Shown here one piece after another: positions 1 through 62,935 of a stretch of DNA of 64,000 bases. The stretch is taken from assembly GCA_000091205.1 (NCBI GenBank), contig AP006494.2. One strand, 5' to 3'. The translations under genes were made by a program, and so were the position numbers. Source of the stretch: Cyanidioschyzon merolae (lineage: Eukaryota). The notes beneath the pieces are model-generated. The model was given only the letters and a program-made list of their open reading frames with translations, was not told the origin of the DNA and ran no database searches. Within the stretch, counting starts at the first letter, position 1; the number at the start of each line of letters is the position of its first letter.

Positions 1-1966
1 AAAGCAGAGGAAGCCGCTGAAGTTTTCTGGGGCTTGGTATTATCGGGTGTCGATCATAATGGACTCCAGGAAGCATAGCAATAGGTGGAATGTCGGCATA
101 CGGATCCACCTGCATGTTCTGAGAATCATGTTGCGTTGAAGCAGGGGCGTTGCTTTGTGTGTTTCAGTTGGAGAGTCGTTGAGCGTGCAGATAGCACGTA
201 AGGACCCCCTTTGGCTGGTTAGCATGCGATTGCGCCAGACTCGCCAGCGGTTTCGGTTGTGCATAAGTACAAAGCGTGAATTCGCCAACTTGTGCAGTGA
301 GTCGGAAAAGCAAAAGACAGAGAAGGCGCGTCGTTTAATCGGAGCCTATGACGCTGGACATACTGTAACGCACGGGGGCTGGTTTCCTGCGCCTTCGACA
401 TGACGCGGCAACGCGTGAAAGAATCGATTCTGCACGATTCGCATCCATGAATTAGGGACGATTTACGCGGATCTTGGATACATATCCAAGCTGAAACTCG
501 TCGAGAAGAAGAACGTGAAACAGAGCAAGGTGCACGAGATGGTATTTGGTTAGCTGACTGAACATCAGATTGCGAGCCAGTTGAAGGTGACATGCTTCCT
601 TGCGCTCGATTCCGCTGGGAACAATGCGCGCAAGCACTTTCTGCACTGGGACTTGAACCCCTCGATCAGCCTACGGAAAGCACTGGCGCCTATGGAGCAC
701 TCAGCGGTTTTTTGTCCAGCGAGTTTTCGCGGCAGTCTTTTCGTACTCAGGGTAAGCACGGGGCAGAAATGCCGTAGACGTGCAGAGAAAAAAACGAGTG
801 GCCAGGAGAGCGCATTGGATTACCGCCTGAAGTAATGCACTGGTATGGTACGATGTAGCAATGCAAAAAGCATACAGGACCGGATGTATACGCAGAGAAC
901 GCCTCTTCTGGGCAATTGCTGGACACTCATGGTAATCCATTATTCGATAGGACAGCGTTTGCGTCTCCCATAGGAATGAGACGCTGCGCGATCCCAGCGC
1001 ACAGTGGAGACCGATTACTGTTTCCTGCTAGATGATGAATGCTACTGCCCCATTGGTCCGTGTTGTTGATTCGGAAGCGGCAAACGCTCCGATGAAAAGG
1101 ACCTGCAGAATCGCTATCTGAAGCGGAAAGGTTCTCGCGTGTTGCCGCTGTGCGGTGCAACGCAGGAGCTCTTCGGCGCGGCTGCTGCGACGGCCAAGTT
1201 TTTCCATTTGTTTCGCCGTTTCCGTGAATCGAGCACCTGCTGCACAAAAATTCCACACACCGGAATCGGACCTGGTGCGGATTATGAAGAGACCCTCAAT
1301 AACGAGGCGCGAATTGCTGGCGCTGCAAGCATTGCCGATCATTCCGTGGATTCGCTCTGAGCGGGAGTAAGCCGCTGGCGAGTCACATGGCCACTGTACC
1401 GCATACGACCTGCGACATCGAGTGACAAACGAGGTGCTTTACGTTTTCCACGGGAACCCGAGATCCATTCGATGCATACAGCCTGGCGCTGGGACAGCTT
1501 CAAACCCGCGCAATGGACCGGGTGCATCGACTAGGCAGTGGCCGCAGTTCTGCGTACGATTCGATGCGCTTTGCTGAACACCAATGTCGTATAAAGCGCC
1601 GATGGATAGCTGAGGTTTTCCGAGCAATCCGTTAGCGAGGGTCTTCGGTTTGCAGGCACGGGATATCCTAGTCCGTGGTGCATACTCCTGGCGAGTCTCT
1701 AGGCCGTTCGCGTGCTCGGCAGCCGCGGAGGTACCGCGCGAGGCACCGGTCGCTTTTCCCGCCAACCGTACGCATCACCACCACCACCACCAGCACCACC
1801 ACGAGGAGCGCGCATAGAATTATTTCACGGAACATGTCCAGCGAAGTGGTTGCTTCGTTGCCGCTCAAGCTATGCAGGCGAAAAACAGCATGCTTACAGG
1901 CGGTGCGCGCCTTGTGCGCTGTTTTCACGATATCTGCTTCGTGCCGCACGACAGGGTAGAGCTGTT

Positions 1967-4900
1967 TCAGGTAGCGTCCGATTCATCGGTGTTGGTGTTG
2001 CGAAAGCGGGACGCATGCCGTGGCTGCTCGAACTGCCTATCTCGTGCGGGGAGAAGGCGCTCCAAAAGGGGGTCTCGTGCTGTCATTTCCAGCTCCAGAC
2101 GAGTCTCGGGTGCGCTAGAGGCTGCTCTGCGCACTCTCGATGCTTCGATATCGCTCTCTCCCGACGCATCTATTTCATCCGCACTGCTACCAGAGTTGGC
2201 AGAATCCTCCTCCTCGTCCTCCTCCTCCTCCTCCTCGGAGAGAGAATGGACGGAACCCGCCTGCTCTGCTGGATCATTTGGTCTGGTTTGCGGTGCGACG
2301 CCTACAATAGGTTCCAAATTGATGTAAAAGAGTTCGTACATGTCGAGCCAAGCACCGCGCAGCTCGTTCCGCGGTCTTCCCTCCTGCCGGTGATACGTGC
2401 TCGCTTCGTGTACAATACGACTCAAGTCGCGGATACGGCGCGGCATGGGCGCTTCTGGTCGCCACAGCTTGATCGTGGCATCAATGCCGCAAGTCACCAG
2501 GTACGGCTCGTAGGGATGTTTCTCGACGCAGTTGACAACGTCGCGATCTGCGAGGAAAACCTGGATCAAATCGCCGGTGTAGCGATCCCATATGTACACG
2601 CGACCATCATCGCTACCCGAGATGACGTACTCGTCGTTTGGACCGTAAAAGTTCACCTCCTTGATGGTGATGGCGTTGCGATGCCCCAGAAAGCAACGCA
2701 CATAGGAACCGTCTGGCGAGCAGCGCGTCGTCAGCCAGCGAGGTACTCGCGTCCAATCACCGGGCGGCTCCAGCTCCTCGTCGGCAGGCGAGGTTGCGCC
2801 ATCCACCGCCAAAGTGCTCCGCATCTGGCCCCGGACCTGCATCGATTCAGCCGCTTCGTATTCCTGCGGCTCAGATGACCCCCTTCGCAACACCCTCGGA
2901 CGATTTGCGCTCGATACGTCGACGCTGGTGCGCACCGAAGGATGCGATGCCATTGCTGCTGGAGGCGCACTGAGGCGGCTCACGAGCGAATGCGTCTCCG
3001 GACGAGAGCCCGCGGGCTCATCAGCGGTACCAGCAAAGCTCTGCATGTTTCGCTCTGCGACTTGGAGTACTGCATCGCGTCCAGGCGGACCCACTCCGAG
3101 GTCTGTGGCGCCATCCAAACGAGATAGACTGCTTTCCGCTTGTTCGCCCGAGGTAGCAGTTGCGCGAATGCAGTCAGGAGGTAGGCTTCGCGATCCCGTC
3201 ACACTACCCGTTGGCCGAATCGCATGCGAAATGCTCACCTCCGAGTGTTCGGATAGCGTTGTGGACGTCATTGGTTGAGGTTGTGATGCTGTGTGCGCCT
3301 GTGCGCTCATGGAATCCGCCTGGATTACTCGATCACTGTGACTAGCCTGCGTCTGGATGCGCAGCGAGTGGGCCCTTCTCCGCGTGATTGGCCTTGAAAC
3401 GCCCTCACTCTGCAGATCATGAGGTATCGAAGTCCGCTCGCTGCTATCATCTGCGAACAGGGGTGCATTGCTTGCGACAATAGGCTGTTGCTGCTGCTGT
3501 TGATGCAGCTCTACCCTGCTGCTCCGCTGATCCATAGCATCGACGATTGTTTCCGCGGGCCTTTCAGAGGGCGCTTCATAATCACCACCACTACCACCGC
3601 CACCGCCACCACCACCACAGAGAAAAGAGCCTTTCTTCGGCTCGGTATCGAAGAGATAGATGGCATCGTGTGCGTAGCTTGCCAGAAGCTGAGAACCGTC
3701 CCGAGAGAACGCCACACCGGTAATCGAAACGCTCTCATACATCTCTTGGAGAAGCATACGACCGAGCCGACCGAGGATCGGTTCCGTATCAACCAGACCG
3801 CCACCCGCATCGTCGGGGTCAGTATCTTCGTAGACATGCCCAGCTGGATTGACAAGTCGACGCAAGTTGCGCCGGCGGACCCGGGCGGCACGACGTTCTC
3901 TCTCAAGGAGCACCTGGCGATACGCCTCACGTTCTTGACGATGTTGCTCCGCGACCGTGCGCCTCTCTAGTGGGGCATACACTCGAACAGGCCCTCGCAA
4001 CTGACTCAACATTCGTCGATCATAGAGCTGAACAAATTCATTGGTTCCAGCGACAACAAACCGATTCGAATCCAACGGATGTAGTTTGAGGCTGTAAAGT
4101 TCAATGGAAGGTTCCGTGATGAGCAGATTTCTCTGCGGCGAGAGTTGCCGCAGGCGATAGGTCCGCTCGTGCTCGCTATCGAACGCCTGTTCCTGAAAGG
4201 AGGCATGAATACGACGCCAATCGATCTCATTCACATCGAGGAGGATGTTCTGACAACGGCGGGTGTCACGGCTATGTCTCAGTGTCGGACGACATCGGTG
4301 TCGATGCGCTTCACGCAAATCAAACTGTCTCACAGTGCCGTCCTCGGAGCAGCTTAATATCACCTGCGGGTTCTGCGGGTCCACAGCGAGCTTCTTGACG
4401 CGCCCCGTGTGGCAGCAGACAGTGCGAATACATCGCCTCTCGAGGTCGCAGACACGGATCTCGTGGTCACCCGCACAGCTGACAATCACCCGATCGCCGG
4501 TGAACGGAACGAAGCGAACGTCGAAGATATTTGCCGAGTGTCCAGTTTGAAAGGTGAGGAGCGGGCGCTGACGCCAACGCTCCGGCGACACACCAGGAGC
4601 CGCTCTGGGCTCATCCTCCGCCGCCAGGTACCGCTCGTAGTCATTTGGCTCTAAAGGTCCCCTACGTGTCGTACTCCGAGCGTTTGGCAGCCACAACTCC
4701 CCGTCCTCGTTGAGGTGCTGGTAGTTCAGGTTCCAGAGCGCGATGCGAGTGTCATCCGAGCCAGACAGGCACAGGGTTCCGCTATCGTTCCAGCAGAGCG
4801 CGTTCACACAGCCGGTGTGCCCGTCCCAGACAGAGCAAAGCGCTAACCGATAGAGGAACGCTCGACTCGCACCGACGGCAGCCTCGGTTGTTCCCGGGTG

Positions 4901-6172: not shown

Positions 6173-7381
6173 CTACAACGCGTCATCCAGTTCCTCCGAG
6201 CACATGACATCAACTTCTTCAGGTACAAGGGCCGACGACGATGACGATAATCCGAGGCCTGACGTCTCATGATCACCATCGCCACCTCCACGAAACGGAA
6301 CAACTGGTGGCGGCATGCAGAGACGTGGACGCTTCTTCGGGGCCCCAGAAGGATAGAAAGTGCGATCAAAGAACAAGCTTTCAGATGAGAGCAAATACGA
6401 GTCTTCATGTGCGTCTCCAGAGATGTTCTCCTGGGATGCGGCAGTCCTTTCGAGGTACGCCGCAAGCTCCATGACAGAACGAGGCGACTGGGACGATTTC
6501 ACTGAGGACAGGATAGGGCGTCGCGAAACCTGGTGTTGACACAAATCCTCGATCCCTGCCAGGCATGCCTGCACATCACTCGCTGCATCGGATAGAAACT
6601 GACCCAAACGGAGGCCCGCCTCGATCGAACCGGGCAGTTGATGGCTCGCACACAGAATGCTCGCTGCTGCGACGACTGATGGCCGATACGAAAGCGCGAT
6701 AGAGGAAGCTCGCAAGGCGATATCCGCGAAACGCAACGACTCGGCAAGGAGGGCGTACGCGAGCGGACTGCGACCCTGACGCCGATCCGCCTGTGTGGAT
6801 ACGCCTTTGCTTCTCGCTGGCTCACTGCCTTGCTTCCCCGACAAGCAAACCCACCCATCATGCATCGGAGTATCCATTGTGGACGTCATGTCGATTTCCA
6901 TAAAATAATAGATAAATGGAATTGCAGACACTCGGACGACGTCCCATTCGAGTATACGCAACAGCTCCTGCTCCATGCGCACGATAGCTGACTTGGAGTA
7001 GAAGCCCGCATTCAATGCATGTAACTTGTGCAAGACCGCCGGGTCGCTCTCCGTCTCTTCACACTTTGCCGCCACTAGGATACACGCGCTCGCCAGCAGT
7101 TGCCACACGTTGCACGACACGCCCTTGTTTCGCGCGAAATACTCGTCGAAACAACTGACGGCGCTATGCACGGTACTTCTCTCGAGGCGCAGCACCTCGC
7201 CGGCATCCAACATCCACTCGACCACTTGCCCGCGATAGAACGCGTACTGCTGCGGAAAACAGAAGCGTTCAGCGACATTGGCATAGAGAAAACGAACGCG
7301 GCGCTCTCGCTCGAAAAACACAAGCCCAGCGTCGTCCCATTCAGATCCCTTCGTTTCAACCAGCATGACCACTCGATCCAC
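6173..7381 (-). CDS. Cyclin (cyclin N-terminal box), 402 aa
   Basis: Cyclin box: VVEWMLDAGEVLRLERSTVHSAVSCFDEYF...CNVWQLLASACILVAAKCEETE...MEQELLRILEWDV. Confidence 0.7.
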   Translation of the reverse strand: MDRVVMLVETKGSEWDDAGLVFFERERRVRFLYANVAERFCFPQQYAFYRGQVVEWMLDAGEVLRLERSTVHSAVSCFDEYFARNKGVSCNVWQLLASACILVAAKCEETESDPAVLHKLHALNAGFYSKSAIVRMEQELLRILEWDVVRVSAIPFIYYFMEIDMTSTMDTPMHDGWVCLSGKQGSEPARSKGVSTQADRRQGRSPLAYALLAESLRFADIALRASSIALSYRPSVVAAASILCASHQLPGSIEAGLRLGQFLSDAASDVQACLAGIEDLCQHQVSRRPILSSVKSSQSPRSVMELAAYLERTAASQENISGDAHEDSYLLSSESLFFDRTFYPSGAPKKRPRLCMPPPVVPFRGGGDGDHETSGLGLSSSSSALVPEEVDVMCSEELDDAL

Positions 7382-8057
7382 GACAGAACGCTTTCCTGTA
7401 GCCCAAAGCAGAAAACTTGGCCCTGTCGCTGCTGCTGCTGCCGTCGTCGTCGTCGCTGTTCAGGAGACTGCACAGCTCGCTTAGGTACCCGAGCAGTGGC
7501 GGACGCTTCCTCGAGCGCCGGTGTCGCCAAGTCGCCTCCTGCAATTGAGTTCCCCGCTATGCTTGGTATGTCAGACCCCCAGCTGATCTGACTGCAGGAG
7601 GAAAGCGACGTTGCCACACAGCGTGGCAGCCTGGGCACCTGTTTCCAAGCGATACCGCCGAGGGGCGTCACTACTGCAAGGTAGAGAGCGAGAAATATCT
7701 GGGGATGGGCGGGAGGCGGCTGGCGGCGACGTCTCCCGCCGCAGCTGCCGCTGCTGCTGTTGTAACGTGTGACCGTTGCGTTGGATGATCGACGCGCGCG
7801 CGCGCTGCGATCTGGGATTTTTTCTCAGATGACGAAAAGTGCCCAGTGATCAGGGATCCCAGATTGCGGGATGGGTAGGTATTCGTTATCGAAAAAGCGT
7901 CCATGATGCTTCACGATACCTCCAAGTTCCATTACTTGTGCCTCCGTTAGGATGCACTGGTCGTTTCGTACGTTCTATCGAGCGCTGAGTGTCTGCTTTG
8001 CTGCACCCTGCTGAAGCGTCTACACCGACAGAGCAGATGCTGCGCGGAGACAGCGCG

Positions 8058-8345
8058 GCGTTACTGTACCACTGATGACTTCGGCTCGAGGCGCGGTCCA
8101 TCTGATAAGGGATCAGGATTCATGATCATTCTGGGATCCAGCGATCTGCGTAGGCGTTGCTGTGCCACTGATGACTTCGGCTCGAGGCGCGGTCCATCTG
8201 ATAAGGGATCAGGATTCATGATCATTCTGGGATCCAGCGATCTGCGTAGGCGTTGCTGTGCCACTGATGACTTCGGCTCGAGGCGCGGTCCATCTGATAA
8301 GGGATCAGGATTCATGATCATTCTGGGATCCAGCGATCTGCGTAG
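8058..8345. repeat. Perfect or near-perfect tandem repeat, 96-bp unit x3, inside the 5' region of the long element (the paralogous copy at 50242-50337 has one unit)
   Basis: Direct reading: the unit gcgttgctgtgccactgatgacttcggctcgaggcgcggtccatctgataagggatcaggattcatgatcattctgggatccagcgatctgcgtag is repeated head-to-tail. Both strands stay ORF-open through the array only because the unit lacks stop codons. Confidence 0.9.
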
Positions 8346-9012
8346 ACAGACGCACTGGCTGCGGCAGCGCGAAGCGATATGCTACGAGATAATCGTCATA
8401 TTGGCGACGCCCAGACGCAGTCTAAGTGTACCTGGTCTCGGAATAAACCGCGTTGCCGACGAGTTACTCAGATCTCAATAGAGTACTAGGCACTGGGTGC
8501 AGCATGGAGCACCAGCCTGGCAGACTTGTCCGGCTCGCAGGACATTCCGCCTGGAAGGTAAACGTTCGAAAATATGGAAACATTTTCCCCCTTTGAACGT
8601 TTACCGTAGAGGGGAAAGAACATTTTATCCACTTGGTAGTTAGTCCTTGGTTTATGATCTTTTTTGTACATGGTGCGCTCGATATGCGCACACCCATATC
8701 TGGCAGGCATGCGACCTAGCATGTGCATCTCGCCGCTGAGGGGAAACGCGAACCTGATCATGAGCGTGTTGCTCTGACTTACAAGATGTATTTGCGTTCA
8801 AGGCACAAGAGAGTATGTTTTTCTCAGTTCAATTGTGTGTCAGCTCTCAAGTGAGTGTATTCGAGCGATTTTTCGCGGGTTGTAGCAGAAGCTTTCAAAG
8901 TGCGTTGTTTTGAAAAATAGTCGAGATAAATCGGGAAAAATATGGTTGTAGAAGTGGAGGATCCTGGAGGGCCCCGTATCGCCGGCTGCCGCAAAAAAAA
9001 AACCGAAGAACA

Positions 9013-10986
9013 GTGCCAACCAAAGAGGAACAACACAGGACCAGGAAGCAAGGCGGCGAGGGCCGACACCAAAACCTGCAGGGAAAACGACAGTACGACG
9101 AGATGGAAGTGAAAGCCTGTCTTTTACGCTGCGTCAAGGATCCGTGCAGGGAAAAGTTGCAAGAGGGCATCAGAAACCGTGTCGATTCGTACTCCAGGAG
9201 TATTGTAAAGGCCTGTTCAGGAATGATGCATGTGGTGAAGGTGATGTGTCGCGACGTGACGGACATCCAAACCGTCGAGGTTCCGGACGAGATTTTCGGC
9301 AAGACCTTCATTCGTCACCTGATGGTTGGAACAGGGGAAACGTCGAGGAGAAATGAGCGAGTTCGTGCCCTCCACGAAAATTACATCAAATACCGCTCCA
9401 ACGGTACTCGATACACGGGAGACTCGCGTATTTACGAATACGGGGCGATCAAGTACCTCACGAACCTGAAGAACCACGTGACCATGAACCTCAAAGGCTT
9501 CATGATACGCTCCGTCTTTGCCCTCGACCTGGAGCTGTCTCGCATAGGGATACGGGCCATCATCGACGGCATCAAGAACGATAGTCGGAATGAACAGGAG
9601 ATCGAATTTGCCGACAAGAAGACATCAAGCAGAGGAAAGAATGAACCTTCTGGAATCCCTGCGGCTATTCAGGAGCACCGTGCAGACTTGGGGCTTGTCA
9701 ACCCCGCGGATAAAGTATCAGAGATGAAAAAGATGACGAAAGATTTTATCCCCGCGTCCAGCGCTATTCCGTGTTTTTGGAGCGAGAACTCGAACGCCAG
9801 GCGGAGATGGAGCTCACTAGGGGAATACGTGAAGATTCGGAGAAGCGGAAGGCTTTCGTAATGGGTAAGCGCTTCAACGTCATTCCATTATGCAACAGCA
9901 AGTAGCACTTTGTGCGAATCGACGCTAGCGTCCTTCATGGCATCACGGGGGAGATGTGTCCGGAGTTCAGTTTTTTCAGGAAGGAGTTCGCCGGCGAAAA
10001 CCCGGAATCGTACTGGAAGAGTATCTTCGATTTCAAATGTCAGAATACAAGCAAAGAAAGATGTATACGGGGAATATCGAAAGAGATGGGATTCTGATGA
10101 ATGTGCACTACGGGTGCTTGATGGCGGATCTTCCTATTCTGTCTTTGTCGGTGCCTTTGACGGAGCATGAGAAGGACAAGGAGGTCGGTCCACGACGCAG
10201 GAGGTGCAGGAGAACGACTTTGTCGTCGGCGTGTGATACCGGGAACACGAATATCGTGACCATCGCTGCACCCAATTTTGCGGAAGATGGCATCGACGGT
10301 AACTTACGTCAGAGAGACATGCGTCTTTTAAAGCTCTCGAGAGCGAGATATTACCGAGACTCGGGAAAAATGAATGCAAGGAAACAAATTGTGACGTGGA
10401 ATGCTGGAGTGAAAGAGCACCTGGAAGCGGTCAGCCAGGTGACTAGTCGTCGAGCGGACCGCTGAGCATTTCTGGAATTCATGAAAAGTTGCGTTGCTCA
10501 TCAAGAGGAGCTGTGGAAAGAGTACACCAAGCCCCGGTGGGTTCGTCAGCATATAACTTTTGTACTGTGGAAAACAACCTGCATTCGCGAACTTTCTTAA
10601 TCAGTTGAGCGCCCTCATAGAGGACAAGAGTCGAAGGCTTGTAGTAGCATACGTTGCAGGTCGCTGAGCCTCCAAAACCAGGGAGCATATCTGCTCCATC
10701 GACAAGAGCGTACACGTAGTGCGCACATCGTTCCGTTACAGTACCGACAGATGAGTTCTGAGCGTCCTACATACACCATGAGCTGGGATGTACACTTCAG
10801 AGGGTCGAGATGGCGAAAAGCCAGCGGAGTCTTGAGGATATAGAAAGGTACGGAGAGCTTGCAGAACAGGAAATTGCACAGAGGGCACGAGCACGAGGAC
10901 TTGTCGCACTGCTTCGTACCACTTGTGGCAAGAAACGCATGAAGTTCGTGAACCGTGACTTTAACGCCGTTATCAAGATCCGATGA
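9013..10986 (+). pseudogene. TnpB/Fanzor-like RuvC nuclease gene, disrupted. N-terminal ORF 9013-9861 (likely start MEVKA at 9103), middle ORF 9956-10465 with RuvC-I-like SSACDTGNTNIVTIA near 10229-10270, C-terminal ORF 10810-10986 ending KKRMKFVNRDFNAVIKIR-stop. Frame changes could be introns or frameshifts
   Basis: The N-terminus MEVKACLLRCVKDPCREKLQ...RVDSYSRSI mirrors the TnpB start pattern (M.KAYK.RLYP..EQ...RFVYN). ACDTGNTNIV matches GIDLGIKNxAT (RuvC-I). RDFNAVIKI matches (D/N)RDxNAAxNI (RuvC-III). An in-frame TGA lies 3 codons after the motif, where the 36-kb copy has Cys. Confidence 0.45.
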
Positions 10987-12130
10987 TTTGCGGCGCTGGA
11001 GAGGAGACCCGAGCAGCTGACGCCATCTAACTTTGTCGGGAAACCGCTCCGGGTCGAGATGAATAAGGAGAAAGTGAAGCCAGTAGTTGGCGACCGGTCG
11101 ACAAAGACTGGGAGCTGTCTCCTTATCGATGGATTGACATCCAGTCTATGGCGGGCGGCGCGCCGCTCGCCACTATTGGACCCCGCTTATGTAGCGTACG
11201 CCGCTCGGAAGGCATGTCGTTGTTACCGGTGCGACGGATGCGTTGATGCTGGCTCTGCTGGGGCAATGCAGCTGGTGCTTGAAGCACTGCGGGTGCGCTC
11301 GTTGATGCGCTGCTGCTTTGATCCTCGGGCGACTCGTCTCGACGGCTGCGTACGACCGGACGACGCTGATGCTGATGCTGATGCTGATGGCGTACGATCG
11401 CGAGCGAAACTGTTTCTATGTGCATAGTGAGGGCGTATTCGATGTCAGAAACAGACTGGGTCACGTTTCCGGTACACTGGTCATGCGGATCATCAGAATG
11501 CTGTTACCAGTGGCATTGGAAATGCGATGATGCGCTTGCATCCGCGTCTGAACACAATGTGGGCTTTCGCGAGCTCCCCCGGACTGCATGCGACGCGTGA
11601 GCACGCATCGCGCACCGATCGCCACAGCTGTTTGCGCGTTTGTGGAACAGCAGCTGCCTTGGCGCTCCGACTTGTCGCTGAAGCACCTCATTGCGATTCG
11701 GTGGCAACGCAGATCCATTGCAGGCGTCAGCATCCGTCCCTGGGCAATGTCCAGGTTGCAGGTACGCGATCCATGCTTCAGCAATATGCACAAAACATAA
11801 TGATAGCCTCGTGACGCTTGCAGAGCAAACGTCGTCCGAGTCCCTTGTTTGGGCTGATGCACATGAACCAGAGATCCCGGGTTGCGCGATGGACGCTGTT
11901 TTCTTGCACTGACGGCAACTTTCGGGAAATCGCCCTAGATCCGGGTACTCCCCAGTCCAGTAGGGCGCCGCAGCGTATCGAGCAGCGCACGCTCTAGGTG
12001 GACACCATGGCAATGTCCAAAATAATCCATTTTATACTGATTTACCTCCGGATCACTCGTGGACGGTACGTAGCGCCTGCCGCGATCCGGCCCGCAGCGC
12101 TTTGTCCATCCTGAACTGTTTCGTCCGCGA

Positions 12131-28599: not shown

Positions 28600-29750
28600 C
28601 AAAGTATCGTAGAGATCGTGGATGAACTGCGTGTGGAGTACATGATCTTTACTGAACAGTACATGGAGGGCTGCATTCTTCCTCCAGATCAGTCATAGTA
28701 CAGTACGCACGTAGTTTGGGAACAATGAAAAAAAAGTAGATGCGCTCTGCGCCAAAACCGATATGCTCAAAGCGCCCATGCGGTCAATGGTAGAAAATGA
28801 CGTGTTGGTCATCTTACGGAAAGCAAAATGAGAAGATCATAGCCACCACGGGCGTCTCTGTTTCTCAATAGCTTGTTGATGTGCTCCTGAAATCACTGGG
28901 GTACAGTCACAAACAAATTCTAGGTCACGGACGGTTACGTTCCACCGATATTGCCCCTGGGGAGTTCCTGGAACGTCGCGGTCGCTATGAAGCAGAGGGA
29001 CGTTGGTTTTATTTTCCAGTAGATGAGACTTTCTTTGGACGAAACGGTCCGAGCGTATCTAAGCATTCGAGGTGAGAGGAGCCAACGGTACCGACCATGG
29101 AACTCGTAGAGAACGACGACATCGTCATCTATCCTAACTGGAGTGGATTCATTTTTGGTGGTCTTATTTCCGCTCGTAGAGAAGACGCATACAACAGCAT
29201 TCACTTCTGCGAACCATTACAGACATTTCTGCTAAGGTCTGGTGACTTCCCTCTATAGGACAATGTAGTATTTCACCGTTTAGCATATGTTCAAGCGTAT
29301 GCGGATTCTATCGGGATAGAGCGACTTTTCACTCTTCCGTATTCGCCATGGTTCAACCGCACCAAAGCATGGTCGAGATGGTGCGAAGCCTGCGGAGTGC
29401 TTCGGCGATACAAAAGCACGGAGAGCTGACACACCAGCATATGGCAGAGAGAGTTCGAGGAATCCTCGATATGATGAGTTCATTCAGAGGCAATAAACGC
29501 ATGGAATCGGTGAACCGAGACTCCGGTGCTGGTATTCATACCAGACCATGTGCGGTGCTCCAGAAAAGACCTGAGGAGCTGACGCAAGTCCGCTTGTGCG
29601 GCAGCCTCTCAGACCCGAAACACCCAAGGAGAAGCTGAGACCGGTGGCGCGGGGCCGGATAAAAAACGTCCGGAGGCACCTCTGGGTGGATATTAATGTA
29701 CCCGACATGGTAGGCAGACATTTTTTGTTTCATTCACGACGTATGCGTGT
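28600..29750 (+). mobile_element. Short degenerate copy of the TnpB/Fanzor-like element family; RuvC-III region decayed to NKRMESVNRDSGAGIHTRPCAV (29498-29563)
   Basis: DNA and peptide similarity to the 35.9-37.35 kb copy: the 5' segment ...ctgaacagtacatggagg..., the RGRYEAE...PVDETFFG block and the RuvC-III region. Ends about 0.5 kb upstream of the AGC kinase start. Confidence 0.4.
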
Positions 29751-35929: not shown

Positions 35930-37350
35930 CAGAAGTTTTTGTCTTTCAACTCAGTTTCGTGGCAAGTCTGCTGCGGTGTGCAGTAGGCGGTTGAAATCTC
36001 CATGGAATGTACTGTACCGATCGTAGACGAATCGCCAATAGAATATGTTGTTTGCTGAACAGTGCACGGAGGGTTTCATTTCTCCATCGGATCAGTGATA
36101 CCACAATACCCATATGGTTGAGGAACACTGAACGAAGCAAGTACACGTGGTCTGCATTAAAACAACCGATATTCTCGAAGACTGCGACCTGTTAGTGGTA
36201 TAAACCAACCCACCGGACACGTTCCGGAAAGCGAAATGAACAATAGTAGGCAGCACGGGCGCCGCTTTTCTCAATTGCCTGTTCGCGTGATCCTGAAAAC
36301 ACTGGGATGCAGTCGGAATAAACTTCTGGTTCACGAACGGACATCTTCCACCAAAATCGGAACGAGAGCGTTCTCAGAATGTCGCGGTCGGTATGAAGCA
36401 GAGCATCATCGGTTTGTTTTACCGGTCGATGAGACTCGCTTCGGAAAAAGACGGTCCGAGCGTATATGGGTATTCGTGGCGGGGGCGCCCCCTTCTATGT
36501 ACAATCAAATTCGATGAGGACGATGACATCAACTGTCCTAGATGTAGTGGATTCTAGTGGCGGCCGCAGTTTCGCTCGTAGGCAAGGCTCACACAACAGC
36601 ATCTACATGCTTAAATCATTGAAGACATTTGCCTCTGACGTTTGATCACGTTCGTCCATTGGATATCGAGGCATCTCACTCTTCGCTTTACGTAACTGCA
36701 TTTGCTGCGCGTGCCGGAGGTAGAGCCGGTCTTTTCTTCCCTGTACGCCTAGTGCCTTAACTCCATCGACGGAGCGTTTCCATCGTGAAACGTAATGATC
36801 GCTCTAGTAGGCGAATCGTTGAAGCGTACATCACACGGTGACACGTTGACACATACCGTCTTTTACCAGCAAGTGCTTCTCCCTTTAGGATGGTTCTCAC
36901 CCAGGCACATAAATAAGTGCGTTCATTTTAGAAAAATAAGGGATGAGCTCGGACGTACATTTCAAAAGGTCGAGTTTGAGCAGAGGCAGTGGAGCGCTTC
37001 GGCTATAGAAAACTACGAAGCGCTGACCGAAGAGCAAATGGAAAGGAGGGCGAAAGCTCGTGGATTGCTTGCACCAGTGAGTACAACGAATGATGGCAAG
37101 AAACGTATGGAGTTCGTGAACCGAGACTTTAACGCCGCCATCAATATCAGGAGATGTGCCGTGGTGGAGCATAGACCTCCAGAGTGGACAAGAAGGTGTT
37201 TTGTTGGACAACCTCCCAAAGTCGAACTATATGAGAAAAAATTTGAAGCAGTAGAAGGTGGCCTGTCCCAAAAGACTGCAAGGCATCTGCACGTCAGTTG
37301 GCTACGTTTCCTCCAAGGCGCGTTGCCGCTACTACTGTGCACCGCTGGCG
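35930..37350 (+). mobile_element. Short copy of the TnpB/Fanzor-like element family with the best-preserved 3' module (ORF 36795-37436 carries intact RuvC-III KKRMEFVNRDFNAAINIRRCAV at 37122-37148); 5' part has an HTH-like ORF (36007-36195) and a middle ORF (36236-36517) in different frames
   Basis: RDFNAAINI exactly fits the TnpB/Fanzor RuvC-III consensus. The 5' end aligns with the 62.9 kb and 28.6 kb copies. The 3' end aligns with 10.8-11.2 kb of the long copy. It abuts the ChaN-like gene start. Confidence 0.45.
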
Positions 37351-37365
37351 ACGTTCGACTTTTGA

Positions 37366-38781
37366 ATGGCTATTGGCTGCATGGAGCAAACTCGAAAACG
37401 ACGGCGGACGGGATGTTTTCATACCCTCGGCTTTGACTGGAGACAAGCGCTCGCGACTGCCTTTATGCCACCAGAACCACGAGGCTTTTCCGCAGCCGCG
37501 TGCCAACGCGCAACACGTTGGCAGACGGTACAGCCTCGAGCTCGTCGACGGACGCTTTCAGAGCGTCGGCTACAAATGCTATACGTCAGCCGTCGAGAGT
37601 TTCTGTGGCAACTCGCAGCGGGCGCGGCAACGCTGGGCTTTCACAGTGTGAAAAAACCTGTGGCGCCAGCGGCTTCAAACTCGGCACCACCGGCGCCCGT
37701 GAATGGGCGCTTGGCACCACTGGGTGCTATCTTCGACACGATGATCGGCTCTTTTCTACCACCGCGACCTGAGCGACTCTTATCGAGGCGAATTCGGCAT
37801 AAAGGAGCACGCTCTGTTCTCTTGGTCGGGGAGACACACACGGACCGACAACACCATCGGGTGCAACTGGCGTTGCTGGACTCGTTTGTGAAGCATGTTC
37901 GAGGTCAGCGGAATGAGTCGATTGCAGGAGCTCCAATTGCGATCGGCATGGAGCATTTCTATCGGCAGCATCAAGTGCATCTGGATCGGTACATTGCGGG
38001 CAAGATTGAGCTACGACAGTTACTCGCTATTACTCGTTTCGAACTTACCTTTGGGTATAGCGCGCAACTTTGGCAGGATATTTTGGAGTATGCACGGGAA
38101 AACCGTATTCAGGTTGTTGGTCTCAATACTCCGTTCGAATTGGTGCAGCTGGTTGCCCACTACGGCCTGGATCACTTACCAGAACGTTTGTATGAAGTGC
38201 TTCCTCGCGATATGGATGTGCATGGTAATGCTGCACACCGTGAGCGTTTTATTCAGAGGATGAAAGCGTTGGGGGTGGAAGCGCATGGTCCACTCATTAA
38301 CGACGAGGCAGCACTGCAGCGAATGTATGAATCGCAGGTGCTCTGGGACGAATACATGAGCGAATCGGCGGCCTTGTGGCTAGAGCGGAACCCCCGCGGT
38401 CACTTGTGTATTTTTGCGGGTAATGGTCACGTCGAAGGCCGTGTTGGGATTCCAGACCGCCTGACTCGTCGTTCTGGGAGGCCGACCTTCACCGTCGTGC
38501 CGTATACGGTGCCGTTCCAATCAGACGGCTGGCCCGATATACCGCATCCCGGCAACAGAGATGTCGGAGATTGGCTCTGGTACCTGCCTGTAGGATCTGG
38601 GGGTGCCGAATCTGACGAATCGGACCCCAAGTCGCAGCGACAGCAACGGTTCGGGGAGCGTTTCGGCTATCGAATCGCACGCAGTACCGAGTCCGACATG
38701 AGACTGATGGGGCGAGGCGCAGCCAGAACCATTCAGAGAGGTACGCAGACGAAATCTGTGGACGAGCCGGACTGGGTATGA
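37366..38781 (+). CDS. ChaN/DUF399 (Tiki-superfamily, haem-binding-uptake-like) protein, 471 aa, with N-terminal R-rich extension followed by a twin-arginine motif; true start may be an internal Met (37465 or 37579)
   Basis: VLLVGETHTDRQHH and FAGNGHVEGRVGIP match the two GxxH signature blocks of the ChaN/Tiki fold. SRREFLWQLAAGAATLGF is a textbook Tat (S/T-R-R-x-F-L) signal. Confidence 0.55.
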   Translation: MAIGCMEQTRKRRRTGCFHTLGFDWRQALATAFMPPEPRGFSAAACQRATRWQTVQPRARRRTLSERRLQMLYVSRREFLWQLAAGAATLGFHSVKKPVAPAASNSAPPAPVNGRLAPLGAIFDTMIGSFLPPRPERLLSRRIRHKGARSVLLVGETHTDRQHHRVQLALLDSFVKHVRGQRNESIAGAPIAIGMEHFYRQHQVHLDRYIAGKIELRQLLAITRFELTFGYSAQLWQDILEYARENRIQVVGLNTPFELVQLVAHYGLDHLPERLYEVLPRDMDVHGNAAHRERFIQRMKALGVEAHGPLINDEAALQRMYESQVLWDEYMSESAALWLERNPRGHLCIFAGNGHVEGRVGIPDRLTRRSGRPTFTVVPYTVPFQSDGWPDIPHPGNRDVGDWLWYLPVGSGGAESDESDPKSQRQQRFGERFGYRIARSTESDMRLMGRGAARTIQRGTQTKSVDEPDWV

Positions 38782-49599: not shown

Positions 49600-49993
49600 A
49601 AAATAGTGACAGCAAGCACCTGCTCACGGCTTTTCGTACGGTGTGGCCGCCGCAGAAGCCCCGCTCGCCGGCGATGGCAACACACCGGAAACGACACTGG
49701 CCCCCGTGTTTCTCTGGAGTGCTGCTGCTGAGACCCCAATGGGTTCACAGCCAATACCAGCTGTTACAGCGTCCGCGTATTCGGTGTTCGCTGTCTCGAG
49801 CTGGCAGCGCAGTGCGCGAGGAGTACCAGATGGGCCCGTTTCAAGCTGCCCTGCGAGTGCCACGACGGTATTGTCCAGGTTGTCGTGAGGCACTGGGATG
49901 GACAGATTGGGAAATGGGACAGATTTGCCATCTGAGTGACTGCGGCGGCGGCGGCGGCGGCGGCGGGATCTCGACTTTGCGCATCGATCTGCG

Positions 49994-51927
49994 ATCTGGG
50001 ATTTTTTCTCAGATGTCAAAAAGTGCCCAGTGATCAGGGATCCCAGATTGCGGGATGGGTAGGTATTCGTTATCGAAAAAGCGTCCATGATGCTTCACGA
50101 TACCTCCAAGTTCCATTACTTGTGCTTCCGCTAGGATGCACTGGTCGTTTCGTACGTTCTATCGAGCGCTAAGTGTCTGCTTTGCTGCACCCTGCTGAAG
50201 CGTCTACACCGACAGAGCAGATGCTGCGCGGAGACAGCGCGGCGTTGCTGTACCACTGATGACTTCGGCTCGAGGCGCGGTCCATCTGATAAGGGATCAG
50301 GATTCATGATCATTCTGGGATCCAGCGATCTGCGTAGACAGACGCACTGGCTGCGGCAGCGCGAAGCGATATGCTACGAGATAATCGTCATATTGGCGAC
50401 GCCCAGACGCAGTCTAAGTGTACCTGGTCTCGGAATAAACCGCGTTGCCGACGAGTTACTCAGATCTCAATAGAGTACTAGGCACTGGGTGCAGCATGGA
50501 GCACCAGCCTGGCAGACTTGTCCGGCTCGCAGGACATTCCGCCTGGAAGGTAAACGTTCGAAATATGGAAACATTTCCCCCCTTTGAACGTTTACCGTAG
50601 AGGGGAAAGAACATTTTATCCAGTTGGTAGTTAGTCCTTGGTTTATGATCCGTTTTGTACATGGTGCGCTCGAGATGCGCACACCCATATCTGGCAGGCA
50701 TGCGACCTAGCATGTGCATCTCGCCGCTGAGGGGAAACGCGAACCTGATCATGAGCGTATTGCTCTGACTAACAAGATGTATTTGCGTTCAAGGCACAAG
50801 AGAGTATGTTTTTCTCAGTTCAATTGTGTGTCAGCTCTCAAGTGAGTGTATTCGAGCGATTTTTCGCGGGTTGTAGCAGAAGCTTTCAAAGTGCGTTGTT
50901 TTGAAAAATAGTCGAGATAAATCGGGAAAAATATGGTTGTAGAAGTGGAGGATCCTGGAGGGCCCCGTATCGCCGGCTGCCGCAAAAAAAAACCGAAGAA
51001 CAGTGCCAACCAAAGAGGAACAACACAGGACCAGGAAGCAAGGCGGCGAGGGCCGACACCAAAACCTGCAGGGAAAACGACAGTACGACGAGATGGAAGT
51101 GAAAGCCTGTCTTTTACGCTGCGTCAAGGATCCGTGCAGGGCAAAGTTGCAAGAGGGCATCAGAAACCGTGTCGATTCGTACTCCAGGAGTATTGGAAAG
51201 GCCTGTTCAGGAATGATGCATGTGGTGAAGGTGATGTGTCGCGACGTGACGGACATCCAAACCGTCGAGGTTCCGGACGAGATTTTCGGCAAGACCTTCA
51301 TTCGTCACCTGATGGTTGGAACAGGGGAAACGTCGAGGAGAAATGAGCGAGTTCGTGCCCTCCACGAAAATTACACCAAATACCGCTCCAACGATACTCG
51401 ATACACGGGAGACTCGCGTATTTACGAATACGGGGCGATCAAGTACCTCACGAACCTGAAGAACCACGTGACCATGAACCTCAAAGGCTTCATGATACGC
51501 TCCGTCTTTGCCCTCGACCCGGAGCTGTCTCGCATAGGGATACGGGCCATCATCGACGGCATCAAGAACGATAGTCGGAATGAACAGGAGATCGAATTTG
51601 CCGACAAGAAGACATCACGCAGAGGAAAGAATGAACCTTCTGGAATCCCTGCGGCTATTCAGGAGCACCGTGCAGACTCGGGGCTTGTCAACCCAGCGGA
51701 TAAAGTATCAGAGATGAAAAAGATGACGAAAGATTTTATCCCCGCGTCCAGCGCTATTCCGTGTTTTTGGAGCGAGAACTCGAACGCCAGGCGGAGATGG
51801 AGCTCACTAGGGGAATACGTGAAGATTCGGAGAAGCGGAAGGCTTTCGTAATGGGTAAGCGCTTCAACGTCATTCCATTATGCAACAGCAAGTAGCACTT
51901 TGTGCGAATCGACGCTAGCGTCCTTGA
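49994..51927 (+). mobile_element. Second, 3'-truncated copy of the long TnpB/Fanzor-like element: 5' region (one 96-bp unit, same hairpin) plus intact N-terminal ORF 51003-51851; lacks the RuvC-bearing part
   Basis: About 98% nucleotide identity to 7806-9936. The 282-aa ORF differs from its paralogue at 6 residues. Similarity stops abruptly at 51927. Confidence 0.6.
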
Positions 51928-52487
51928 ATGCACAAAACGACCAGTGCATCCGAGAACAGGTAATGGAACATGGAGGTAGGGCGCATCATGATGGACGCTT
52001 TCCCAAATGCTTGTACCCAGCTCGCAATCCTGGGTCCCTGGTCAACGTAAACGTTTTTTGAACAAAAATGCCTGAAGCAGCTGCATCGGGACTGCAATGC
52101 TGCCAGTATCGACCTTCGACAGTTGATAACGGAACTGGAGGGAAATGAGCACTCACATGAAATACACGCGAAATCTGGTATGGATGATCCCGAAGAGCGT
52201 GTCAAACTTTGAGGTTTCCAGTCGAATTTGAGAATATGTCATACTTTATGCTACCCTGGATGTATCATCGTGTACGGCACGTTCGTGGTCGACACCCCGT
52301 GTAACGCCGCACGTCGATACAACATAGCCCTTATTCTCCTCTAGACCAGTCACTGGCGGTGTACCTGTTTTGACACACGACCAAATCGAGTGTCTTACGC
52401 CTTAGTTCAAGCTCCACGGCACCAAGCGTAGTTCGTAGGCGGCCAAGTAGACAGACATGAACTGGACGCTGGCTCGCCGCGCTTGAC

Positions 52488-61539: not shown

Positions 61540-62935
61540 TGGGTGCGTCGTCCTTCGCCCCAGGAACCGGCTCGGTACGCACGCTGTCGCCCGTTGCGAG
61601 CACAAGTGCAAACCCAGCTGCACAACGCGTATCACTGCGTTCTGCGTTTGCGCACACCGGGGATGCAGCGCAGCCGCTCGAGCACTCGGACGTACCACTG
61701 TGAGAGTCGTCTGCCTGGACGCAGTCGAAAGCGTCCCGTCGGATGAATATATGTTCTTGCTTGTCTCCCATCTTCTTCTTCGTGGTCGTATGCTCTTCTT
61801 TGCTCCATAATCGGAGACAAGAGGATTTTCCGGTTTTTCGGGCATCTGGGGGTGACGGCGCGCCAGGATCCTCTGCTTGCATGTCCATACCTATTACTTG
61901 GATTTTGTATTTCTTCAAAATAAACGCACTTGTTAATGCCCTTAGATAAGGACCTTTTCGGAGGCAGGAGGACCTGCGGAAGAAAGACGACTTGTGCTCG
62001 CGGTTTGTCCCCGCGGGCTGCACGCTTCAGCGATTCCTCCAGTGAAGCGATCATTATGTGTCACAACAGAGAACAAGCCTTCGATGGGGATGAACCACGG
62101 AGCGTACGGAGGAACCACAAGGAGGTCTAGCACCCAACAGAATCCTCAAAAGCTCGAATGCAAGGGAAACAGTGAGATGCCACGCTGTCCAATAGAGGAA
62201 CGTCGCCAGACGTCAGGGGTAAAGTCGTCAATCCTTTGATAAACTGGGTGCTATTATGTGAGCCTTCTCCACTGGGGAAACTGATGTCGCCACTTGAATC
62301 CACTGCAGCTAGAGCAGATGATGATGTCGTCGTTCTCATCGGGTTCGACTGTGCATACGACGGGCTCCCTCTCCACGAATACCCATATACGCTCCCACGT
62401 TTCGTCCGAAGAAAGTCCTATCAACAGAAAAAAGAAACCGACGATCCTGTGCTTCTCACAGATCGCGACGCTCGATAAACCCTCTCGTTGGGATTTCGGC
62501 AGCAGATAGCCGAGTGTGAACTAGGACTCTCTTCTTGCGACTGTGCCCCTGTGCGTTTCGTAGGACATGAACTAGCCGTAGAGAAACAGAGATTCCGGTG
62601 GTGGCTGCAATCATCGCTTTTATTTTCCGCAAGGTGAACAAAGAGTCGGTTTTGTACCACTGGCCGCAAACAGTGTTTAAGAATATCGGATTCTAACGCG
62701 GACCGCATACACTCCTCTCTTTCAGCGTTCCGCAACCATTTGAAGACTGTGGTATGACTGACCTGAAGGAGGAATGCAGTATTCCTTGCACTGTTCAGTA
62801 AACAATAGTTCTTATAGACGATTCGTCTACGATCTATACAATACATTGCATTGTGATTTCGACCGCCTACGATACACCGCTACGAGGAGGGCACGGTCGA
62901 GTGAAACAAACCTGAGTCAAAAGAATATATAGGTT
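61540..62935 (-). mobile_element. Short copy of the TnpB/Fanzor-like element family in inverted orientation (HTH-like ORF 62421-62846, MIASLEESLKR ORF 61632-62054); RuvC-III region decayed; 3' end abuts the prefoldin-4 start
   Basis: The 5' end ...ggtttgtttcactcgaccgtg...gcggtgtatcgtaggcggtcgaaat... (reverse complement) aligns with 35.93-36.0 kb. The ORFs MYCIDRRRIVYKNYCLLNSAR / MIASLEESLKRAARGD parallel MYCTDRRRIANRICCLLNSAR / MIALVGESLKRTSHGD. Confidence 0.4.

Follow-up and report, generated by a model that had tools for sequence, protein, structure and literature searches.

The Fanzor-like element in this stretch of Cyanidioschyzon merolae DNA is almost certainly a pseudogenised, essentially full-length CMe-1A copy (copy 1 below), belonging to the known Fanzor1 transposon family of this species. 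The present analysis establishes the identity of the element, its homology to Fanzor1 by sequence and by fold, and its dead state. The original Fanzor paper (Bao & Jurka 2013, Mob DNA 4:12; PMC3627910) already includes CMe-1/CMe-1A as the Fanzor1 family of C. merolae. It puts the CMe-1A copy number at about 150 per genome and the identity of each copy to the consensus at about 80%; the copies lack terminal inverted repeats, and some are stated to encode an intact Fanzor1 still. The supplement of that paper gives a CMe-1A DNA consensus of 3169 bp (Additional file 2) and a CMe-1 protein of 734 aa. None of this, from the family itself to its copy number, consensus and assignment to Fanzor1, is a discovery of ours. 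The preliminary description of this DNA was right to expect a multi-copy family, and further copies and fragments are indeed present nearby, but such a family is not a new occurrence of Fanzor, having been published in 2013.

The window (the whole stretch analysed, 64,000 nucleotides) belongs to chromosome 12, as the products of seven of its ORFs are identical to C. merolae 10D proteins within BAM80810-80825. With blastn, positions 2-3082 of the published CMe-1A consensus matched 7828-11120 of the window at 77-80% identity. A global alignment with MAFFT gave 79.3% identity, a value typical of the published divergence, and placed consensus position 3169 at about 11214, so that copy 1 is collinear with the consensus across positions 2-3169, over about 3.3 kb of DNA. 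Its 5' end lies at 7805 if homology with a second copy in the window is used, or at 7828 if the published consensus is. A T-rich sequence of about 20 nt upstream of the consensus start is common to both window copies and to independent copies elsewhere, and for this reason a small part of the 5' end may be missing from the published consensus. These limits agree with the 7806-11200 proposed in the preliminary description. At the protein level, tblastn queries (metagenomic homologues and the published CMe-1 protein) covered 8998-11127, with E-values down to 1e-116, and the frame-corrected translation of copy 1 aligned gap-free with CMe-1 over 728 aa, at 67% identity.

Table 1. Features of copy 1 and of the other CMe-1A-related sequences in the window.
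Feature	Position	Strand	Basis or remark
Decayed full-length CMe-1A Fanzor1 transposon (copy 1)	7805-11214	+	Consensus alignment and homology to copy 2
5' non-coding region (consensus 1-905)	7805-8941	+	Consensus alignment
96-bp unit, three tandem copies (consensus 222-318)	8057-8345	+	TRF: period 96, 3.0 copies, 98% matches
Decayed Fanzor1 CDS (consensus CDS 906-3110, 734 codons)	8942-11150	+	Consensus alignment
ORF, 282 aa	9013-9861	+	Contains MEVKACLLRCVKDPCREKLQ...RVDSYSRSI
ORF, 169 aa	9956-10465	+	Contains SSACDTGNTNIVTIA
RuvC-I aspartate codon GAT (...VDTGNTN)	10235-10237	+	Kept; aligned with invariant D484 in the 50-member family alignment
Relocated RuvC-II glutamate motif DEF* (family VDEFRTS)	10750-10761	+	Glu kept; Arg codon changed to TGA, stop at 10759
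ORF, 58 aa	10810-10986	+	C-terminal end KKRMKFVNRDFNAVIKIR
RuvC-III motif RDFNAVIKI (family RDFNAAINI)	10954-10980	+	R and D kept
Second copy, 3'-truncated (copy 2; consensus 2-1895)	49989-51925	+	98-99% identical to copy 1
Inverted CMe-1A/TE-N2_CMe 5'-end fragment (consensus 8-144, 80%)	51926-52057	-	Adjoins copy 2
3' end of a further CMe-1A copy (consensus 2737-3168, 84%)	36943-37370	+	Homology
Short, older CMe-1A fragment over RuvC-III (consensus 2762-2983)	29371-29602	+	68% identity in DNA, 50% in aa
Very old Fanzor1-like relic, C-terminal half	2-754	+	Several stops; about 33% aa identity; truncated at the start of the window

The layout of copy 1 is that of the published element, with a single Fanzor1 ORF preceded by a long 5' non-coding region. 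No terminal inverted repeats link its two ends, again a published trait of CMe-1A. An inverse match between 7847-7975 and 52044-51926 could be taken for such repeats, but it is due to the separate inverted 5' fragment beside copy 2. The 5' region of copy 1 aligns to the CMe-1A consensus, the first ~635 bp of which correspond to a separate repeat, TE-N2_CMe (PMC3627910), and isolated 5'-end fragments exist (e.g. 51926-52057). Copy 1 differs from the consensus and from copy 2, where the 96-bp unit is single, by the triplication of this unit.

The three ORFs, which do not share one frame, are present with their motifs as had been reported, and they are far beyond chance. The preliminary description left open whether the frame changes were short introns or decay. 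In the consensus, the CDS is one uninterrupted ORF of 734 codons. When copy 1 was compared with it, we found 10 frame-shifting indels (1-7 bp), one 3-bp deletion and seven premature stops. Introns are present in many Fanzor genes of other eukaryotes (PMC10530073) and the codons for the catalytic residues D, E and D survive in copy 1, as would be expected of an intact or recently active gene with short spliceosomal introns. Yet every interruption of the frame, when compared with the consensus and the metagenomic homologues, is one of these 1-7 bp indels without any intervening sequence, and the seven in-frame stops stand where the consensus has sense codons. C. merolae also has very few introns. 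An intact, intron-containing gene is thus extremely improbable, and decay accounts for the frame changes.

An active nuclease calls for an intact ORF, which copy 1 no longer has. Because of its frame-shifting indels and its seven premature stops copy 1 is dead and unable to produce the nuclease; the suggestion of a potentially active RNA-guided endonuclease has to be abandoned for a pseudogene that is about 20% off the consensus. Substitutions relative to the consensus amount to 17.8, 17.6 and 24.9% at the first, second and third codon positions, respectively, and noncoding divergence is 22%. This pattern points to an almost neutral decay after an old insertion. The excess at third positions is small but real, which means that some of the ~20% divergence may be older than the insertion and reflect subfamily divergence under selection.

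The catalytic motifs were affected to different degrees. Among 50 relatives, D484, E656 and R724/D725 vary little or not at all, the RD..N.A.N pattern is invariant, and copy 1 still has the corresponding D (10235), DE (10750-10755) and RD (10954-10959). The RuvC-I-like sequence noted earlier was correct as to its aspartate, which is real and kept. In contrast, the 'SSAC' preceding it arises because translation there runs out of frame, from a 1-bp indel at 10191 to a second one at 10234 that compensates it; the ancestral frame reads FVVGVDTGNTN. Where the family has RTS, after the relocated glutamate, copy 1 reads *AS, and in RuvC-III it has undergone two replacements (A to V and N to K), both at positions that are invariant in the family.

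The arrangement of these motifs is that of Fanzor1. Bao & Jurka described the constellation as D ... [TS][TS] ... zinc-finger region ... RD (PMC3627910), and the putative zinc-finger region of CMe-1, in which four Cys would be expected, reads HHELGC...C. Fanzor1 proteins have, moreover, a rearranged RuvC-II, in which the canonical glutamate is replaced by glycine or proline and an alternative glutamate lies downstream (PMC10530073). CMe-1 conforms to this, with VVAYGAGR at the canonical site and the alternative glutamate in VDEFRTS, about 36 residues downstream.

Direct domain searches were negative. Neither the three ORFs nor a hand-joined peptide of 671 aa had any match in Pfam, including PF01385 and PF07282, the two families to which the preliminary description had pointed, and the close homologues had none either. 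An NCBIfam scan of the homologues and a PDB sequence search with the joined peptide and with a 13-member profile of close homologues were equally negative. Some homologues carry a precomputed match to PF26935 (DUF8286), which our own scan did not reproduce and which is uninformative. For lack of such direct matches, three lines carry the assignment to Fanzor1: a deeper profile, the fold and the assignment made in 2013.

A profile search found 1546 relatives of the family. The profile that reached Fanzor1 structures, and the only one to do so, was a 50-member profile built from an exhaustive representative search. It matched the Fanzor1 chains of the PDB, i.e. PpFz (9cf0), SpuFz (8gkh) and GtFz (9cer), with E-values of 2.5e-22, 8.7e-16 and 5.4e-10, respectively, and 14 of the 50 more distant relatives, unlike the window peptides, matched PF07282. 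For the fold, we used an AlphaFold (AF2) model of an uninterrupted relative (P0001; pLDDT 80.8), which is not a model of the broken window copy; a run with 23 close homologues had a pLDDT of 33.8 and was kept out of the fold search. In a Foldseek comparison with the PDB, the best seven matches of the P0001 model were all Fanzor1 (E-values of 4e-17 to 4e-14, TM up to 0.72), SpuFz being the best (E 4e-17), followed by Cas12 proteins. The absence of Pfam or PDB sequence matches to the window peptides alone is what one would expect if RDFNAxIxI were a coincidence and the ORFs had nothing to do with TnpB or Fanzor. The full-length collinear homology to CMe-1, the family profile matching three solved Fanzor1 proteins and the best fold match, to SpuFz, leave this explanation with a negligible probability. 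The near full-length TnpB/Fanzor-like element that had been recognised in this eukaryotic chromosome is thus confirmed, as Fanzor1, by sequence, profile and fold, and solved Fanzor1 structures now confirm, by the last two, the 2013 assignment of this red-algal family.

CMe-1 shares with SpuFz1 (PDB 8GKH/9CEU), PpFz1 (9CF0) and GtFz1 (9CER) profile similarity (E 1e-10 to 1e-22), a predicted fold (TM 0.58-0.72 between the relative and SpuFz) and the motifs GxDPG (RuvC-I), DE[FY]RTS (relocated glutamate) and NRDxNAA (RuvC-III). It differs from them by a sequence identity of only 12-15% and by its carrier transposon, CMe-1A being unclassified and without terminal inverted repeats. For CMe-1, moreover, both the nuclease activity and an omega-RNA are putative, and the copy in the window has decayed to a pseudogene. 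Bacterial TnpB (IS200/IS605, IS607; e.g. ISDra2 TnpB) and Cas12f belong to the same RuvC nuclease lineage, in keeping with the rank of the Cas12 folds just after Fanzor1 and with the matches of 14 of the 50 relatives to PF07282 (Cas12f1-like TNB/OrfB_Zn_ribbon). Unlike bacterial TnpB, CMe-1 has a eukaryotic host, is much larger (734 aa), carries a long N-terminal extension and has AYGAGR in place of the canonical RuvC-II glutamate, with the alternative glutamate downstream. The element contains no TnpA partner or transposase ORF, and the window element lacks the prokaryotic IS context with TnpA of bacterial TnpB, its peptides having no match to Pfam OrfB_IS605 or OrfB_Zn_ribbon.

An intact CMe-1A carries a single, intron-less gene of 734 codons for a Fanzor1 protein, the homologue of TnpB in eukaryotes. 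By homology with SpuFz1, PpFz1 and GtFz1, this protein would be an RNA-guided double-strand DNA endonuclease, with a RuvC active site consisting of the RuvC-I aspartate (GADPG), the relocated glutamate (VDEFRTS) and the RuvC-III aspartate (NRDFNAA). The guide would be an omega-RNA, presumably a transcript of the element's 3' end. For intact members of the family, nuclease activity, the omega-RNA with its position, and the mechanism of transposition of this unclassified carrier are inferences. The window copy, for its part, is in all likelihood an old insertion that then decayed almost neutrally.

Independent copies preserve the 3' end of the element up to a sharp, exact boundary. A search for an omega-RNA there produced nothing convincing: the single-sequence fold of the 3'-terminal 210 nt had a weak z-score (-1.77), RNAalifold found no covariation support for an RNA structure among eight 3' ends, and there were no Rfam matches within 7000-12000. 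By eye, two hairpins can be made out at the terminus (GCCGCC...GGCGGC as well as CGTTCGA...TCGAACG), but they do not keep the same register from copy to copy and are hence not claimed.

Copy 2, located 42 kb from copy 1, has the 282-aa ORF in common with it. Identity between the two copies is 98-99%, whereas to the consensus it is only about 80% for either one; their common 5' boundary coincides with the 5' end of the element. We considered the possibility that copy 1, though dead as a gene, is not inert: decayed CMe-1A copies might be mobilised or homogenised, copy 2 resulting from a recent trans-mobilisation of a dead copy, and their 3' ends might provide guide RNA for intact Fanzor1 proteins made elsewhere in the genome. 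The near-identity of two copies with the same broken ORF, their shared 5' boundary, the CMe-1A copies reported to encode an intact protein and the exactly bounded 3' end would all fit with this. However, gene conversion between pre-existing copies or a segmental duplication would equally explain the near-identity; copy 2 is without its 3' half, the part expected to hold an omega-RNA and the right end; and the 3' RNA structure is without covariation support. We regard this possibility as unlikely. The more specific proposal that dead copies still act in Fanzor biology, the 5'-anchored duplicate having arisen by recent trans-mobilisation or by copying induced by a Fanzor break, and the 3' ends yielding guide RNAs for the few intact CMe-1 proteins, appears doubtful at best. 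If dead copies did take part, C. merolae, with its tiny, tractable genome, would be a natural system for Fanzor1-assisted transposon maintenance. For the reading that we prefer, a dead CMe-1A copy, the practical consequence is to treat 7805-11214 as CMe-1A repeat, to be masked, and to annotate it neither as a gene nor as a new RNA-guided nuclease.

Beyond copies 1 and 2, the window contains at least four further fragments (Table 1). In environmental Cyanidioschyzon-like sequences, the family is still abundant and its reading frames are long and uninterrupted; these are the copies worth testing for activity, e.g. at high temperature or low pH.

By its sequence, copy 1, the element under study at 7805-11214 (+), is a member of an already published family. 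In the paper that defined Fanzor, Bao and Jurka (2013; PMC3627910) listed for C. merolae a single Fanzor1 family, CMe-1/CMe-1A, whose roughly 150 copies are each about 80% identical to a 3169-bp consensus without TIRs and whose 734-aa protein, CMe-1, is encoded in a single exon. The 5' 635 bp of CMe-1A are 95% identical to TE-N2_CMe, a second repeat with about 70 copies (PMC3627910). We took the consensus DNA and the protein from Additional files 2 and 3 of that paper. With the consensus as blastn query, window 7828-11120 matched consensus 2-3082 at 77-80% identity; a global alignment gave 79.3% identity and reached consensus 3169 at about window 11214. CMe-1 aligned with a frame-corrected conceptual translation of copy 1 at 67% identity over 728 residues with zero gaps. 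These matches make copy 1 a typical member of the known family and not the new occurrence proposed in the preliminary description. Seven ORFs neighbouring it are exact, full-length C. merolae 10D proteins (BAM80810, 80816, 80817, 80819, 80821, 80824 and 80825; CML locus tags), which identifies the window as red-algal chromosome 12.

The three plus-strand ORFs and their motifs, as first described, were recovered by ORF calling and three-frame translation (see the table). The latter showed a recognisably related peptide that crosses from frame to frame and is interrupted by several in-frame stops. These frame changes had been thought to be possible introns. Scored relative to the consensus CDS (906-3110), they correspond to ten indels (1, 4 or 7 bp) that shift the frame; no inserted sequence was present at any of them, and they are therefore not introns. 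One 3-bp deletion and seven premature stops, all in former sense codons, were additionally found. Substitutions amounted to 17.8, 17.6 and 24.9% at first, second and third codon positions, and to 22% in the non-coding parts; the decay is essentially neutral, with a small remnant of past purifying selection. All three catalytic codons are kept (Asp 10235-10237, Glu 10753-10755, Asp 10957-10959), but the Arg codon following DEF is now TGA, and in RuvC-III RDFNAAINI has become RDFNAVIKI, two family-invariant positions being changed. The 'SSAC' noted earlier upstream of the RuvC-I Asp arises because two compensating indels put the stretch between them out of frame; the ancestral frame gives FVVGVDTGNTN. 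With its frameshifts and stops, copy 1 cannot encode a nuclease, and its description as potentially active was wrong.

Features of copy 1 and related sequences (window positions unless a locus is named)
Feature	Position	Strand	Remarks
5' non-coding region	7805-8941	+	~1.1 kb
96-bp unit (consensus 222-318), triplicated	8057-8345	+	inside 5' non-coding region
Decayed CDS	8942 to ~11150	+
3' tail	after CDS	+	~60 bp
ORF 1	9013-9861	+	282 aa; contains MEVKACLLRCVKDPCREKLQ...RVDSYSRSI
ORF 2	9956-10465	+	169 aa; contains SSACDTGNTNIVTIA
ORF 3	10810-10986	+	58 aa; ends ...KKRMKFVNRDFNAVIKIR
Frame-shifting indels, copy 1	8969, 9000, 9726, 10055, 10191, 10234, 10557, 10678, 11134, 11149	+	vs consensus CDS
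Premature stops, copy 1	9903, 10463, 10665, 10717, 10759, 10984, 11135	+	vs consensus CDS
Upstream T-rich stretch	7805-7828; 49989-50012; 52057-52085 (-); L001:~8465-8480; L006		L001, L006: metagenomic loci
Copy 2	49989-51925	+	98-99% identical to 7805-9935; ends at consensus 1895
Inverted 5'-end CMe-1A/TE-N2_CMe fragment (consensus 8-144)	51926-52057	-	adjoins truncated copy 2
CMe-1A 3' fragment (consensus 2737-3168)	36943-37370	+	84%
Fragment spanning RuvC-III region	29371-29602		68%
Much older Fanzor1-like C-terminal relic	2-754	+	~33% aa identity; several stops; at window edge
BAM80821 ORF	37366-38781	+	ChaN/'iron-regulated' protein, 471 aa

Neither the three ORFs nor a hand-joined 671-aa peptide had a Pfam match, and a PDB sequence search with the copy 1 peptides gave none either. 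Among 5.8 billion proteins, a word-indexed search found 23 homologues (about 50-59% identity, nearly all from JGI metagenomes), which run continuously through the frame breaks of copy 1 and carry clean motifs (VVGADPGNTNII, VVAYGAGRW, VDEFRTSYTHHELGC and FVNRDFNAAINIR). Because their profile matched no solved structure and AlphaFold with their alignment gave no usable model (pLDDT 33.8), we searched 1.84 billion representative proteins exhaustively with HMMER. This yielded 1546 relatives at E <= 1e-3, of which 287 passed E <= 1e-30, with many full-length proteins of 600-700 aa. Fifty, 24-39% identical to the homologue P0001, were aligned. Among the few invariant columns were D484 (RuvC-I Asp), E656 (Glu of VDEFRT) and, in RuvC-III, R724, N727, A729 and N731, D725 being nearly so.

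In the PDB, the 50-member profile matched the Fanzor1 proteins of Parasitella parasitica (9cf0, E 2.5e-22), Spizellomyces punctatus (8gkh, E 8.7e-16) and Guillardia theta (9cer, E 5.4e-10), with GxDPG, DEFRTS and NRDxNAA in register. PF07282 (Cas12f1-like TNB/OrfB_Zn_ribbon) was found in 14 of the 50. AlphaFold with the same alignment gave a confident model (pLDDT 80.8, pTM 0.79), whose best seven Foldseek PDB matches were all Fanzor1 structures, led by that of S. punctatus (E 4.4e-17, TM 0.58/0.70-0.72), then those of P. parasitica and G. theta; Cas12 family proteins ranked after them. A rearranged RuvC-II has been described for Fanzors, and the CMe-1 family resembles them in this: Gly takes the place of the canonical Glu (AYGAGR), with an alternative Glu some 36 residues further downstream. 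Profile, Pfam, predicted fold and RuvC-II together confirmed, independently of the 2013 assignment, that the family is Fanzor1, in line with the 'Fanzor-like' label of the preliminary description.

By homology with SpuFz1 and other tested Fanzors, intact CMe-1 proteins would be omega-RNA-guided RuvC nucleases, and intact members would cut double-stranded DNA adjacent to a TAM. The 3' ends (window copies, consensus and metagenomic loci from L001-L009) share one sharp boundary, consensus 3169, conserved in eight independent copies. However, RNAalifold gave no support for covariation in the eight 3' ends, the fold of the consensus 3' 210 nt reached a z of only -1.77, and Rfam had no match in window 7000-12000, so the omega-RNA of the family is inferred.

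The metagenomic loci L001-L009 match the consensus at 85-89% identity. One of them, L001:10001-12259 (a 49-kb contig of JGI metagenome 3300050362), holds an uninterrupted 752-aa reading frame with an early end at ENFIG and extra KHEE-rich repeats; it sits among eukaryote-type genes, the source presumably being Cyanidioschyzon-like algae. In most of the other environmental copies, gene calling yields several separate genes, so that these are broken as well.

No TIRs were found in copy 1. Its 5' non-coding region contains an imperfect 26-nt inverted repeat at 8545-8617 (consensus ~520-600), close to the expected end of the 635-bp TE-N2_CMe-equivalent segment, and short palindromes occur at the very 3' end of CMe-1A (11149-11172; in other copies, the final ~20 nt). 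This hairpin and the palindromes could act as cis-elements or form RNA structure. Independent copies have in common a T-rich stretch (e.g. GGGATTTTTTCTCA / GGCATTTTTGTTCA) immediately before consensus position 1, and the published consensus may lack about 10-25 nt at its 5' end.

Copies 1 and 2 are almost the same sequence, yet each differs by about 20% from the consensus, and both have the same broken 282-aa ORF; either a dead copy was therefore duplicated or the pair was homogenised, in both cases recently. Trans-mobilisation, gene conversion and segmental duplication would fit equally well here. The 96-bp unit is single in copy 2 versus triple in copy 1. At L006:1637-1946, direct and inverted 5'-end fragments come immediately after a CMe-1A 3' end; this layout and that at 51926-52057 hint at clustered or nested insertion of CMe-1A/TE-N2_CMe elements.

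The relic at 2-754 shows ~33% aa identity to CMe-1 and to the distant relative P0105 alike, and its decayed RuvC-III reads HWDLNPSISL; it could represent either a far older CMe-1 insertion or a second Fanzor1 lineage of C. merolae, so far uncatalogued. A weak match at 61826-61931 (-) to consensus 869-968 (69%, E 8e-6), the junction of 5' UTR and CDS start, is a possible further small CMe-1A remnant. The 3' end (consensus 3168) of the fragment at 36943-37370 overlaps the annotated ATG of BAM80821 by about 5 nt, and many environmental members of this protein's 90% cluster have 401 aa. The repeat may affect the annotated N-terminus or promoter, or the N-terminus may be mis-called.
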